From contig JAHPZE010000015.1 in NCBI GenBank assembly GCA_019058365.1, forward strand, positions 33,873 through 97,872: 64,000 bases of DNA, read 5' to 3'. The notes under the pieces are model-generated. The model was not told where the DNA came from, ran no database searches, and saw only the letters and a program-made list of their open reading frames with translations. The stretch comes from Promethearchaeota archaeon (GTDB lineage Archaea; Asgardarchaeota; Lokiarchaeia; Sigyniarchaeales; SOKP01). Positions 11,464 through 58,362 of the stretch are shown here, piece by piece. The position numbers and the translations under genes are program-made. Numbering within the stretch: position 1 is the stretch's first letter; every line of letters begins with the position of its first letter.

Positions 11464-12498
11464 TTAAGAAAATTGTTTTAATTTCTCTGATTTCTCATAG
11501 AACTCTCTCCCAAGTCGATCATCTCCAATTTCAATGCATTTTTCAGCTAATTTTTCGAAAAGTAAAGCAGCATTAGAAAAATTTCCATTTTCTAACGCTG
11601 TTTCAACACTATTTACCAGATTTTCTCGTTCAAAAAGGGGTTTTAATAAGGGAGAGTCTTCAACACTCATTTCAAGAATATCTGCGATAATTCGAATCAT
11701 TCTATCACGATTATTAGGATTGACAGCAATCATAGAATACGCTTTAACACCAGTCATTCTTTCAATATCTTCAACTTTCACGGCTTCAGTTAAATCTTGC
11801 TTATTAGCTATTATTGCTGCATGAGCATAAGGAGCCTCTTCAGTAATTAACTCCAAAAAAGATCTACTTCTTTCAATATTATTAAGTGTTGAATCAGTAA
11901 TTAATAAGACAGCATCACTGCCTTTAATAAATTTGTTCCAAAGAATGCTAAATTGTTCTTGACCAGCGAAGTCCCATAAATAAAACACTAAATTTCCAAT
12001 TTTGATTGTTGCTATCTCACCATTAATAGTAGGAATATGCTGTAGTGGAATTTCTTTTGCTTTAATCAATTGAGTAATTGTGGTTTTACCTACACCAGAG
12101 TATCCAACAAGAGAAATTTTTGGTTTGAGATTTCTATGAAATCCATCAATGATAGAATCTAAAACATTAAAAATAGCATTATCTTTAATCGTATGAATTG
12201 TATCTCCAAATAAACTTAAAAATTCCATTTTTAATCTATATAATTCTGATTGAACTCTATTATAATCGTCGCTTAATGCAGATATAAAAACAAAAATTAA
12301 ATTTAGCTCTTTTTCAGTAATGTAAGATATTTTATATTTAAAATAATCATAAGTTCCAAACTCTTTACCTATTCTTGAAAAAGAAGCATTACTAATATCT
12401 GAAACAACATTTTTAAATTCCACATCTCTTAATGCTTTTGCGTAATCTCTCCTATATAATACGGTTCCATTCTTGATTACAAAAACTTGTCTAAGCAT
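11464..12498 (-). CDS. small GTPase (Arf/Gtr-like) with N-terminal longin-like domain and C-terminal helical hairpin
   Basis: G1 GYSGVGKTT, G2 PT, G3 WDFAGQE, G4 NKQD; N-terminus MLRQVFVIKNGTVLYRR...LNLIFVFIS has a longin-like pattern. Confidence 0.88.
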   Translation of the reverse strand: MLRQVFVIKNGTVLYRRDYAKALRDVEFKNVVSDISNASFSRIGKEFGTYDYFKYKISYITEKELNLIFVFISALSDDYNRVQSELYRLKMEFLSLFGDTIHTIKDNAIFNVLDSIIDGFHRNLKPKISLVGYSGVGKTTITQLIKAKEIPLQHIPTINGEIATIKIGNLVFYLWDFAGQEQFSILWNKFIKGSDAVLLITDSTLNNIERSRSFLELITEEAPYAHAAIIANKQDLTEAVKVEDIERMTGVKAYSMIAVNPNNRDRMIRIIADILEMSVEDSPLLKPLFERENLVNSVETALENGNFSNAALLFEKLAEKCIEIGDDRLGREFYEKSEKLKQFS

Positions 12499-12540
12499 AG
12501 TTTTATCTCAATATTTCAAACCGAAATTATCAAATATTTT

Positions 12541-13473
12541 TTACGTTCTCCGGATTTTATAATAATTTTCAATTTTCAACTTTATTTTTTCTTTTAAATT
12601 AGATATTTCATCAGTTTTATTATTTTCTGAAAAAATAATCAATTTTTTAAGTTCGGGATTTATAATTTCAAGATCACCAACAATTAATTTTAGAATTTCA
12701 ACTCCAGAACTAATAGATTGAATATTTCTCTTAATATCATAATTACCGTCAATGGTTCTTATATAATAGGAAATTACAAAATAAATTTTATAAATTAGTT
12801 CTGTGTTAAAATCATTAGTCATCGATTGTACAATAATATAATTTTTGCTGTTAGTAATAAAACAAATCAAATTGGTAAAATTTTTGATATTTTCATCAAT
12901 AATTATCTTTAAATTCTTAGAATCCTGTGATAGATTACTCAATATCTCCGAAAAAGCATTAAATATAGTGTAATCTATTTCTGGATAGATACTTGTAAAA
13001 TAGAAAGGTATTTCTATTGGTAGAGTAAATCGACTTTTTATACCTCTCTTCATTAAATGGAAATTATCACTAACTTTTTGGTTAATTAAATCAATCTTAT
13101 GAAAAAGAATTACCAGATTATTTTCATTGTTCCTAACTTTCAAAATTTCGAAGATAAGCTTTACTTCTTTAATAATTTCTTGGGAATTTTGTATCCATAT
13201 TGGATAATCTAAGATATAAATAACAACGCCAGCATTTTGAAAAGCTTTTATCTGATCATTTTCGTCTAATAATAAAAAAGGTAACTCTTGCCCAGAAGTG
13301 TCAAATATACTTAATTCTATATCCATCCATGAATATGACCTTTGAATTATTCCGCGTGTAGGTTCGAGAGGATTTAGCATAAGATCAGCGGGATTTCCTC
13401 CTTCAAATAAAAGATTAAGAATACTTGTTTTACCTACTCCAGCTCTTCCTATTAAAGTTATTTTTTCAGGCAT
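12541..13473 (-). CDS. Rag/Gtr1-like small GTPase with C-terminal roadblock-like domain
   Basis: GRAGVGKTS, LEPTRG, FDTSGQE, Rag-type G4 HKID and TSI; paralogous to the GTPase/C-terminal part of 46973-48286. Confidence 0.85.
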   Translation of the reverse strand: MPEKITLIGRAGVGKTSILNLLFEGGNPADLMLNPLEPTRGIIQRSYSWMDIELSIFDTSGQELPFLLLDENDQIKAFQNAGVVIYILDYPIWIQNSQEIIKEVKLIFEILKVRNNENNLVILFHKIDLINQKVSDNFHLMKRGIKSRFTLPIEIPFYFTSIYPEIDYTIFNAFSEILSNLSQDSKNLKIIIDENIKNFTNLICFITNSKNYIIVQSMTNDFNTELIYKIYFVISYYIRTIDGNYDIKRNIQSISSGVEILKLIVGDLEIINPELKKLIIFSENNKTDEISNLKEKIKLKIENYYKIRRT

Positions 13474-13514
13474 TTTGTTATAAATAAGTTTTTTTTCAAT
13501 AAGTACACAAAATT

Positions 13515-56496: not shown

Positions 56497-56642
56497 AAAT
56501 TTTTTTAGAATTTACTCTTGAAAAACTTTTGCGAATAATTTTTACGCATTTTTATCAATCTATAGAAAAAATCTGGAATAGATCATTTTAATAAAACAAT
56601 ATCAATTCAGATAAATTAAATCGGAAATTAAAGATTAATACT

Positions 56643-57641
56643 TTAATTTAAAATGATATCCTTAAAAATATTAACAAATGCGGAAAAATCTTTATTTATG
56701 AAATAAAGATCAAAGGGATTATGTTTCTTTAGAATTAGCATATAATATGGAATAGTACTTTCTTCGAATATGATTGGTTTGAATAAAAAGTGATTTCCTG
56801 ATTTTCTTACTATTATCTGATCATTTTGTTCTTCTAAATCCATCTCAATAAATACATCATTTAGAGTTAAAAAATAAGCAATAGTTTTACTTAATAGCTT
56901 GTTTGAATCATCATCTTTAAAGTAGGAACCCAAAATAATCGAATTTTTATCAATTATTATTAATCCCTCACAGTTTAATTTTCTTGCGAATTCTTCAATA
57001 GTCTTTTGTACTAACTCTGATTTTGGATATAATTGTAATAAGATTTCAGATATAGCACTTATTATTGTATAAGGTTCATATATTGAAGTATAAAAGTAAT
57101 AAATTTTTTCATAATCCACCGTTTCCTGTATTTCTTTCTTTAATTCATTTATTAGATGTTCTATTTCTATTTTGGTGTTATTAATTAAATTAGGATCATA
57201 TTTATGAAAAAAAATATTGAGCGGTGGTTTAATTTTCAATTCTTTAAACTTGTCAACCACATCATATAAATAACTCATTGATTCAAGTATACGAGAACCA
57301 TCTAATATATCTATTACATATATCGCAATTTCTGTATTATCAAAATATTTACTAGGATTTTTCAAATAAGAAATAAGATAACTCTTTTGACCTCCTAAAT
57401 CCCATTCACTTATTTCTCTACCTAATAGTCTAAAACTGGTTCTCTGTGCGCCTTTAGTCGGTTCAAGTTTAGCGATTTTGGAGAATTCCCTATTAAGAGT
57501 TAAGATTATACTCGTTTTACCTGCTCCATCTAATCCTGTAAACAGAATTTTATATGGTTCATGTTTATGTTCTCTCTTCTTATTATAAATTATTTTAGAT
57601 TCCTCCAATTGAATTTCACCACTTTTCTTTAGATAAAACAA
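56643..57641 (-). CDS. Arf/Rag-like GTPase with C-terminal roadblock-like domain (true start may be TTG at 57608)
   Basis: GLDGAGKTS, EPTKG, WDLGGQ, HKYD and TSIY; C-terminal GLIIIDKNSIILGS; GGTGA SD upstream of 57608. Confidence 0.87.
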   Translation of the reverse strand: MFYLKKSGEIQLEESKIIYNKKREHKHEPYKILFTGLDGAGKTSIILTLNREFSKIAKLEPTKGAQRTSFRLLGREISEWDLGGQKSYLISYLKNPSKYFDNTEIAIYVIDILDGSRILESMSYLYDVVDKFKELKIKPPLNIFFHKYDPNLINNTKIEIEHLINELKKEIQETVDYEKIYYFYTSIYEPYTIISAISEILLQLYPKSELVQKTIEEFARKLNCEGLIIIDKNSIILGSYFKDDDSNKLLSKTIAYFLTLNDVFIEMDLEEQNDQIIVRKSGNHFLFKPIIFEESTIPYYMLILKKHNPFDLYFINKDFSAFVNIFKDIILN

Positions 57642-57906
57642 TAGAATAAAACCTTATGTGATTTCGAGACATATATGATAATTTTTATTCTAAAACTTAA
57701 ACAGTAAATTTGGTATTTAAATATTGTTAAGGTTAAAAGCTAAATTTTTTCATGCCTTTAACAATTCTACATAAAATCTTAAAACCTTTAGGTTGTTTAC
57801 ACCTAAATTTGATAATTATTGATCATTTTTGAAATATATTCTTTTAAGATAAATCTGAAATACTTTCATAGGAAAAGGGCAATAAAAAATAGAATTCAAG
57901 GAAATT

Positions 57907-58362
57907 TTAATCAGGTGTGAGTGAGTCGAGATCGGATAAATCTAAACCACTGTCCATAACTTCCACAGTCTCTGACAAAAATTCATCCAAAATATCTTTG
58001 AGTTCATCACCAGATCTCTTTAAAATTAATCGGATCAAACCGATATTAATGTCTGGATCTGAGATAAGTGTAAGTACTCCCTTAGGGCCACAACTTGATG
58101 CAAAAATCTTACCTCCACCAAATTCTGATGTTACGATTTCAAGATTACCTAGTTCCAGATTCTTACCTTGCTCTTCACTAGCACAGAATACAGCGCTCGC
58201 AATAGCACCAATCCCATCAACATCAGCAGGAAAGTATGAGAATTTAGAGACACTTGCAATGGTTAGGCCCGTTCTATCAACCAATATTACCTTTTTAATA
58301 CCACTCTCACTTTTGATTATTTTACTGAGAATGTTATCGAAACTTTTAGTGTCAATACTCAT
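57907..58362 (-). CDS. roadblock/LC7 (MglB/LAMTOR-like) protein
   Basis: GIKKVILVDRTGLTIAS, IGAIASA, IVTSEFGGGKIF and NIGLIRLIL; acidic tail. Confidence 0.92.
   Translation of the reverse strand: MSIDTKSFDNILSKIIKSESGIKKVILVDRTGLTIASVSKFSYFPADVDGIGAIASAVFCASEEQGKNLELGNLEIVTSEFGGGKIFASSCGPKGVLTLISDPDINIGLIRLILKRSGDELKDILDEFLSETVEVMDSGLDLSDLDSLTPD

Follow-up and report, generated by a model that had tools for sequence, protein, structure and literature searches.

We analyzed a window of 64,000 nucleotides from the genome of a Promethearchaeota archaeon of the class Lokiarchaeia (here G000, 4.74 Mb; the window is C36:33873-97872), in which about 47 kb (window positions 11464 to 58362) hold genes for two-component signaling interleaved with genes for eukaryote-like small GTPases and longin-like proteins. 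We refer to these signaling genes as the island and name each gene by its lower coordinate in the window; f1 is the family of this genome and f2 its sister family, which includes the complete genome G022. A sequence-only reading had taken the entire 47 kb, including a stressosome operon, for one new pathway. We found that the 47 kb are not one system and that two families of Lokiarchaeia share a conserved core, which has been rearranged time and again.

All open reading frames (ORFs) named in that reading were found at their positions, and its counts held. There are nine histidine kinases (14765, 16041, 18685, 21580, 26869, 31263, 41565, 44827 and 49901), each with its phospho-His present in the sequence, five stand-alone receivers (18288, 20540, 21077, 26361 and 51951), a stressosome operon encoding RsbR and RsbS (STAS), RsbT and an RsbT-RsbX fusion, nine small GTPases that all have intact P-loops, and one roadblock protein (Robl_LC7, E 1e-9). 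The gaps in the plus-strand run 39884-53313 measured 35, 83, 34, 10, 5, 85, 166 and 115 nt, as had been claimed. The longin labels stood in part. That of 39884 was confirmed by its fold; those of 11464, 13515, 48292, 46973 and 54469 come from iterated profiles built here together with the motif pattern, and 49901 gave weak matches only (BET5, E 0.055; Fuz_longin_1 in 3 of 31 members). The winged-helix tails of the GTPases are likewise weak Pfam matches (E 0.002-0.07). Altogether, 9 of the approximately 32 kinases and 9 of the approximately 103 small-GTPase ORFs of the genome lie in 34 consecutive genes out of about 4050. The assembly of the region is sound, since a contig from the probable source run covers 43196-55900 with no differences and the gene order of the window is matched in close relatives. 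A scan for promoters and terminators of the bacterial type, which is the wrong type for an archaeon, returned 95 sites against 105.8 expected by chance.

At the center of the core lies 39884 (39884..40567, plus strand), a protein of 227 aa that joins a longin domain of the FLCN/NPRL2 class to a C-terminal two-helix hairpin resembling the dimerization and histidine phosphotransfer (DHp) domain of histidine kinases, and that has no C-terminal DENN or winged-helix domain. Its structural model (predicted local distance difference test [pLDDT] score of 75) matched best to chains of GATOR1, SEA and FLCN, the top three being 8fw5_B (Z 12.6, root-mean-square deviation [rmsd] 2.9 over 131), 8adl_S (Z 11.7) and 6nzd_H (Z 11.6, rmsd 2.9 over 129). 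Foldseek agreed (8dhb_J and 7t3b_B), and the longins of Mon1-Ccz1, BLOC-3 and TRAPP also matched, with Z scores of 8.5-9.4. At the sequence level, the Pfam Folliculin model weakly recognized 36 of 40 family members at E<=0.01, and a search of the 39884 profile against PDB sequences returned no longin match. Three motifs, Y38-D39, G43-P44 and A96-R97-G98, were invariant in 42 of 42 sequences. G43-P44 precedes strand 2, as does the GP motif reported to be specific to longins of the GTPase-activating protein (GAP) type (PMC12290439). R97 falls between model strands 82-92 and 100-110, i.e., in the beta4-beta5 loop, where the arginine fingers R147 of SMCR8 and R164 of FLCN are found (bioRxiv 10.1101/2020.04.16.045708). 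On the model, R97 is a candidate arginine finger. In the hairpin, the position of the phospho-His is taken by Leu169; across the family it is L, M, I or V and in 0 of 42 sequences His, and the arginine three residues further (R172) is invariant (42/42). This hairpin is closest to the SHELRTPLN-class kinases of the island itself and not to the stressosome-linked kinases.

Two further core genes encode Rag-like GTPases. The 437-aa product of 46973 (46973..48286, plus strand) is a longin-Rag GTPase with a roadblock-like tail (Pfam Gtr1_RagA, 5e-23); its best PDB matches were RagA (E 5e-12) and Gtr1, the latter match extending into the C-terminal domain. Alignment of its longin revealed W10-D11 and no conserved arginine finger. 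Similar W-D residues are needed for the GAP activity of C9orf72, and 46973 is a candidate both for the partner longin and for the target of 39884. The 507-aa protein 48292 (48292..49815, plus strand; Gtr1_RagA, 2e-14) combines a Rag-like GTPase, a winged helix and a longin-like domain and lies downstream of the longin-Rag gene in 19 of 27 loci, usually directly. The third core GTPase, 38159 (38159..39652, minus strand; 497 aa), is Arf/Arl-like (Pfam Arf, 2e-22; Gtr1_RagA, 2e-20; PDB matches 8yl2, 8zla and Arl3) and is located in the island in both families. Its C-terminal part (38159-38330) carries a polyproline run and an amphipathic helix, R-x-x-I/V-L/I/M-S-E-L-K/R, that is conserved in both families. 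We take this tail to resemble a polyproline-WH2 actin-binding arrangement; Pfam gave no WH2 match for it.

The relay part of the core consists of 44827 (44827..46962, plus strand), a GAF-PAS-PAS histidine kinase of the SHELRTPLN class according to Pfam, which has an island ortholog in both families (57% identity in G022), and of the single-domain receiver 51951 (51951..52319, plus strand), whose best PDB match was DivK (1m5t, E 3e-28; next best PleD, 1e-17). Elsewhere in this genome (C30:105833-107982), another DivK-like receiver, with 60% identity to 51951, is encoded beside another SHELRTPLN-class kinase. This neighborhood supports the pairing of kinase and receiver; it has no small GTPase, which shows that such a pair is able to stand alone. 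Two genes belong to the core at the family level. The GTPase-winged helix protein 40603 (40603..41481, plus strand) is directly downstream of 39884 in many f1 genomes and was not seen in the three f2 loci, and the multi-PAS kinase 41565 (41565..44792, plus strand), also of the SHELRTPLN class, has a sensor part that differs from genome to genome. A second GTPase-winged helix paralog, 52435 (52435..53313, plus strand), was found in some relatives. Five of the GTPases (46973, 12541, 56643, 48292 and 52435) passed the Gtr1_RagA cut-off and have an HKxD G4 motif, and winged-helix tails replace the C-terminal roadblock domain in 40603, 52435 and 48292. The idea that these tails are the fused ArsR of cassettes found elsewhere in the genome was not supported.

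To follow the island through related genomes, orthologs of 46973 and 39884 were collected with their surrounding genes. Orthologs of 39884 were present in 41 of 111 other genomes of its own family and in 3 of 10 of the sister family, and none turned up in a search of nine further genomes of the class. A GTPase gene lay within three genes of 39884 in 38 of these 44 genomes, and a kinase or receiver gene in 33 of 44; many of the scored loci are short, and the chance background for a nearby GTPase is 12%. Six genes recur in both families (39884, 38159, 44827, 46973, 48292 and 51951; loci L225 and L226). They remain together while their order and strand vary and their flanks are exchanged. Thus, linkage of kinases and receivers with Rag/Arf-like GTPases and a longin is kept across two families despite rearrangement. 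The nine-gene plus-strand run was not conserved as a unit: 46973 is back-to-back with the receiver in 15 loci, versus 4 other genomes, all of this genus, in which it follows kinase 44827 on the same strand. The run is therefore a genus-level arrangement, and a single conserved nine-gene operon was rejected. The stable units are the sub-run of 39884, 40603 and two kinases and the pair 46973-48292. For comparison, 9-29% of ordinary gene pairs are still linked between G000 and G022, and the largest background blocks mostly comprise 1-3 genes and reach up to 7, so that retention of the core is above typical, yet within the observed range.

Longins are tied to two-component signaling at other places in the genome as well. 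G000 contains two paralogous cassettes (L068:1346-5278 on C26 and L069:2294-6481 on C34) in which ArsR, a Rag/Arf-like GTPase, a MASE3 kinase and a receiver::longin fusion are encoded divergently from an Lrp-like regulator. The fusion has canonical receiver residues and an output domain with the WD..GP pattern and, mostly, a conserved arginine in register with R97 of 39884. We found this output domain in 76 of the 101 class genomes as well as in three distant families. Within the family, 35 of 45 loci have a GTPase gene no more than three genes from the fusion, and outside the family 7 of 19 do; some loci are without any, and the neighboring GTPase paralogs, gene orders and arrangements differ among lineages. 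The output domain is linked to 39884 by a profile alignment (E 8e-4, probability 25%) and topology alone, because fold searches with the model of the fusion returned receivers only; its profile gave no longin match among PDB sequences and nothing consistent in Pfam. In addition, one ORF of 1130 aa (L067:2493-5885; C20:15492-18884 of this genome) fuses a longin-like domain, an Arf-like GTPase (Pfam, 6e-34), a second longin-like domain and PAS-PAS-GAF to a kinase core that lacks His and G boxes. This GTPase-pseudokinase fusion has full-length orthologs, 42-86% identical, in at least 7 other genomes of the family. The cassettes and the fusion are separate solutions to the same link and provide the strongest argument against mere clustering; both support this part of the sequence-only reading. 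Other combinations were observed too: a 686-aa protein that scores as receiver-longin-kinase, with co-oriented GTPase genes on both sides (L172:4379-8400, isolate BC1), a 416-aa fusion of a receiver-type longin with a GTPase (L194:8890-10140) and, just outside the window, a 375-aa longin-like and winged-helix protein with an NPRL2-like layout (L070:4359-5486), whose gene also adjoins the island in G025 and G075.

Complex prediction for 39884 with 46973 returned a score of 0.41, the best of 3 controls reaching 0.00. The mark passed by this pair was reached by 58 of 80 solved pairs and 2 of 110 mismatched pairs; among the pairs that reached it, 7 of the 80 solved ones and both mismatches scored 0.60 or under. 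Contacts agreed between runs at 78% or more and the pLDDT of the partner was at least 79, with no interface given. Since complexes of longin pairs have already been solved, the pass may come from likeness; a profile comparison of the two longins was not significant. The prediction weakly suggests that 39884 and 46973 associate.

We compared the island with known systems. Similarly to the eukaryotic longin GAP complexes FLCN-FNIP, NPRL2-NPRL3 (GATOR1) and SMCR8-C9orf72 (PMC12290439; bioRxiv 10.1101/2021.04.13.439632), it has in 39884 the fold class, the GP motif and a beta4-beta5 arginine, as well as a candidate finger-less WD partner longin and Rag- and Arf-like neighbors. It differs from them in that a kinase-type hairpin replaces the DENN and winged-helix domains of the adaptor, the candidate partner longin is fused to a GTPase, the input appears to be His-Asp phosphorylation and the GAP activity is putative. 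The Rag-type G domains recall the Rag/Gtr system; the window has only one roadblock gene. In Caulobacter, the His-less DivL reads the phosphorylation of DivK through its His+3 arginine (R553), the loss of which disrupts binding of DivL to DivK~P (PMC4211667). The DivK-like receiver 51951 and a DHp hairpin that lacks the phospho-His and keeps the His+3 Arg are reminiscent of the DivJ/PleC-DivK-DivL pathway, and 39884 could read receiver phosphorylation in the same way; unlike DivL, which retains PAS and CA domains and passes its signal to CckA, 39884 consists of the longin and the hairpin only.

Kinase, small GTPase and roadblock protein are also encoded together in the actinobacterial conservon/AGPS CvnA-D (PMC13343842, PMC13621833, PMC4316618), a four-gene operon of a histidine kinase, an MglA-type GTPase and a roadblock GAP that has no response regulator and whose products interact in an activity-dependent manner. 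The island is not a conservon by its defining features: gene order and strand differ between genomes, no fixed operon unites kinase, roadblock and GTPase, the several GTPases are of Rag, Arf/Arl and Rab types and not MglA, a DivK-like receiver belongs to the core and the candidate GAP is a longin. Moreover, the general concept is not new, being preceded by conservons and by Liu et al. (bioRxiv 10.1101/2020.10.19.343400), who report many Asgard NPRL2-like longin fusions to two-component domains (Fig. 5c) and propose a two-component relay as the core of a pathway with eukaryote-type regulators. The text covered names no conserved kinase-GTPase block, His-less hairpin adaptor, DivK-like receiver or target GTPase, and Fig. 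5c may draw the 39884 architecture. A literature search, which most subscription papers lay outside, turned up no description of the block or of its adaptor. What the island adds is a conserved block of kinase and GTPase genes, limited to Lokiarchaeia, that offers a specific candidate for the adaptor; the overall idea is already in print.

That kinases and GTPases of the island are functionally coupled in some way is likely. We tentatively favor, at a strength somewhat short of probable, a reading of the conserved core as one module that puts Rag/Arf-like GTPases under the control of a His-Asp relay via the longin adaptor; its interactions, the direction of signaling and the target GTPase we infer from the parts, their motifs, the fold of the adaptor and the linkage of the genes. 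Judging from intact motifs and from what is known of these families, the SHELRTPLN-class PAS/GAF kinases 44827 and 41565 would set the phosphorylation of 51951. By analogy with DivL, 39884 would dimerize or dock through its His-less hairpin and read the state of 51951 without being phosphorylated itself. The longin of 39884, paired with a longin that lacks the finger, for example that of 46973, might then present Arg97 and stimulate GTP hydrolysis on a neighboring GTPase, either in the pair 46973/48292 or in 38159 or 40603; for this step the fold and motifs are observed and the activity is presumed. More speculatively, the outputs could be the winged-helix GTPases and the polyproline-tailed Arf-like protein. 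In its most specific form, the reading makes 39884 a phosphorylation-gated GAP, on whose hairpin phosphorylated 51951 docks to switch an FLCN-type finger on a Rag/Arf-like GTPase, with the 46973 longin as a C9orf72/FNIP-like partner. This form is possible but unlikely.

Several observations weigh against the reading of the core as one module. This copy of 39884 scores 21.6 bits, below the Pfam Folliculin cut-off of 23.3, and the assignment of the arginine finger rests on topology, because no sequence alignment of 39884 to the FLCN, NPRL2 or SMCR8 chains was obtained. Adjacency of kinases and GTPases in G000 was above a circular-shift null (p 0.03-0.06) because of this island alone and was gone without it (p 0.28-0.75); thus, the island is genuine, yet it does not reflect a general linkage between kinases and GTPases. 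Adjacency gave p 0.05-0.06 in G022, which carries the island, and no enrichment was detected in the complete sister-family genomes G011 (p 0.5-0.7) and G032 (p 0.9). Genome-wide enrichment of kinases near GTPase genes, which the sequence-only reading had proposed to look for around Rag-like genes, was rejected on these non-significant results. The notion of a pre-eukaryotic architecture was not supported either, given that the 39884 island was found only in two Lokiarchaeia families and that those two complete genomes are not enriched. Furthermore, the background between G000 and G022 also includes surviving blocks of 5 and 7 genes, a non-signaling dehydrogenase gene (58817) accompanies the island in many family members, and in G011, G032 and G001 no kinase lies within about 10 kb of the 46973/48292 orthologs. 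Because relatives are not independent of one another, the counts overstate the conservation.

The same parts could be wired in the opposite direction, with the longin of 39884 reading the nucleotide state of a GTPase and the hairpin heterodimerizing with or sequestering the kinases or the receiver, GTPases being the input and the relay the output. The hairpin indeed resembles the dimerization helices of the island kinases, 39884 often heads a gene run leading on into kinases, the longin-like domain of 49901 lies directly ahead of its kinase core and the GTPase-pseudokinase fusion has its GTPase on the input side. We nonetheless consider such a reverse flow unlikely: the invariant GP and Arg97 indicate catalysis on a GTPase rather than passive reading, and the longin is clearly the output domain in the receiver::longin cassettes.

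It is rather unlikely that the island is a mere hot spot, i.e., that two expanded families gather at one locus by ordinary microsynteny while kinases and GTPases function separately. Such gathering would leave unexplained a longin fused to a kinase hairpin and conserved in 45 genomes, receiver::longin fusions that lie beside different GTPases in different lineages, and retention through repeated inversions across two families. It would fit the roughly 32 kinases and 103 GTPase ORFs of this genome, recent duplications within the island, the sporadic stressosome insert, the failure to find genome-wide enrichment and the survival of some 5-7 gene blocks by default.

Coupling could also run through 39884 with its longin serving as a GEF (guanine nucleotide exchange factor) or a scaffold rather than a GAP. 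Among longin proteins, GEFs or platforms are the majority (PMC12290439), the Mon1-Ccz1, BLOC-3 and TRAPP longins are among the matches of the 39884 model, and Liu et al. proposed GEF activity for an Asgard DENN module. GAP-class longins outrank the GEF longins by 1.5-3 Z units, however, and the combination of GP and finger is reported to be specific to the GAP class (PMC12290439), which makes this explanation improbable.

The reading of the core as one relay-to-GTPase module would bear on a wider question. In Asgard archaea, Rag/Arf-like GTPases and longins number in the dozens and there is no TOR, which Liu et al. report as absent. It has been stated that the GTPase genes of strain MK-D1 generally do not share operons with regulators, and that gene layout does not allow regulators to be assigned to GTPases (PMC10933270). 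Asgard longins with GP and finger have been reported as possible GAPs, and the question of whether GP-motif longins are GAPs, and for which GTPases, was posed in the same work (PMC12290439). The island names few partners, namely one adaptor, one receiver, two kinases and three or four GTPases, and these also persist in a complete genome from the Promethearchaeum family, which makes both the GTPase-regulator and the GAP questions testable at the bench. If 39884 is a phosphorylation-gated GAP, it would form with the receiver::longin cassettes a direct archaeal switch from His-Asp signaling to Rag/Arf-like GTPases and provide the first biochemical role for Asgard GAP-type longins. A true GAP link would also show what the folliculin/GATOR1 module did before TORC1. 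The island is confined to a part of Lokiarchaeia.

The proposal that the whole 47 kb, stressosome included, form a single pathway directly ancestral to Rag-Ragulator-GATOR1/FLCN sensing is very improbable. In its favor, a Helarchaeote (G065) has a run of stressosome, kinase and receiver genes that is 10-20 kb upstream of receiver::longin, longin and GTPase genes and shares their strand, and several relatives have the 21580-21077-16041 block within the island. Against it, RsbS was found in only 3 of 130 other class genomes, two of which have kinase and receiver and no GTPase in the fetched region; the kinases linked to the stressosome belong to a different class from that of the 39884 hairpin; and the island was found in two Lokiarchaeia families only, in varying strand arrangements.

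On the reading favored here, the stressosome, the membrane-longin kinase 49901, the Rab-like gene 53335 and most of the left-hand kinases are lineage-specific additions to a signaling hot spot. The stressosome operon (23759..26085, minus strand) is a sporadic insert with the order rsbR (STAS only)-rsbS-rsbT-rsbT/X and the domains STAS, STAS, HATPase_c_2, and HATPase with SpoIIE. Known stressosome operons have the order rsbR-rsbS-rsbT-rsbX with two-component genes downstream. The gene set and order here are alike and are followed by a kinase and receivers; unlike in those operons, RsbR is a STAS-only protein of 148 aa, with STAS starting at residue 27 and no sensor domain, and the operon is a rare insert. 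Given this rarity of RsbS, the stressosome was rejected as a core member, and it is an accessory like 49901, full orthologs of which are found in a handful of genomes. In the Helarchaeote LW55_61 (L269/L169; G065 C1:454-475 kb), stressosome, kinases and receivers on one strand lead into receiver::longin, longin and GTPase genes. The protein 49901 (49901..51784, plus strand) joins a membrane part (about 7 transmembrane segments by inspection) to a longin-like domain and a histidine kinase. We saw no GP motif or finger in it, its gene lies inside the run only in G000, G052 and G056, and an ESM Atlas search with its middle domain returned unnamed clusters only, under 0.9.

Left of the stressosome, the accessory two-component block 14765..23724 comprises the hybrid kinases 14765, 16041 and 18685, the receivers 18288, 20540 and 21077 and the kinase 21580; the sub-block 21580-21077-16041 is inside the island in L040, L043, L047, L228, L234 and L240. 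Beyond it, an accessory trio (11464..14324, minus strand) encodes the longin-like protein 13515, the Rag-like GTPase 12541 and the longin-Arf-like GTPase 11464, members of which touch the island in a few relatives (L228, L241 and L044). On the other side of the stressosome, the accessory stretch 26361..37058 holds the receiver 26361 and the multi-PAS kinases 26869 and 31263 and consists in part of recent duplicates of island genes. An inverted duplicate of 1170 nt, 94.5% identical, lies in the PAS tracts of kinases 26869 and 41565 (28604-29773 and 42056-43225), and a direct duplicate of 1.3 kb, 80% identical, spans a kinase tail and a receiver (21009-22297 and 26293-27579). The accessory protein 37102 (37102..37956, minus strand) combines a ribbon-helix-helix domain, a His-bearing DHp and a receiver, an architecture published for Lokiarchaeum GC14_75 (PMC5847659).

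To the right of the core, two genes are often linked to the island: 54469 (54469..55515, plus strand), for a longin-like domain with a coiled coil, and the roadblock gene 57907 (57907..58362, minus strand; Robl_LC7, 1e-9; MAPKK1_Int, 2e-6). The roadblock protein is unusually conserved, with 88-97% identity across the family; its gene is linked to the island in many, not all, relatives and is often beside 54469. Two accessory GTPases are encoded on this side, the Rab-like 53335 (53335..53889, minus strand; Pfam Ras, 8e-42), which lacks the switch-II Gln and was seen in the island only in the closest relative, and the 332-aa Rag-like 56643 (56643..57641, minus strand; Gtr1_RagA, 4e-24).

Outside the island, the window carries a pair of genes for a corrinoid protein and a methyltransferase of the URO-D family (4936-6943) and a HEPN-nucleotidyltransferase pair, a typical toxin-antitoxin module (8632-9632). 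At its right end (59837-64000) it encodes a very large, probable surface protein with tandem repeats of 312 nt (104 aa), an assembly gap lying beyond the window.

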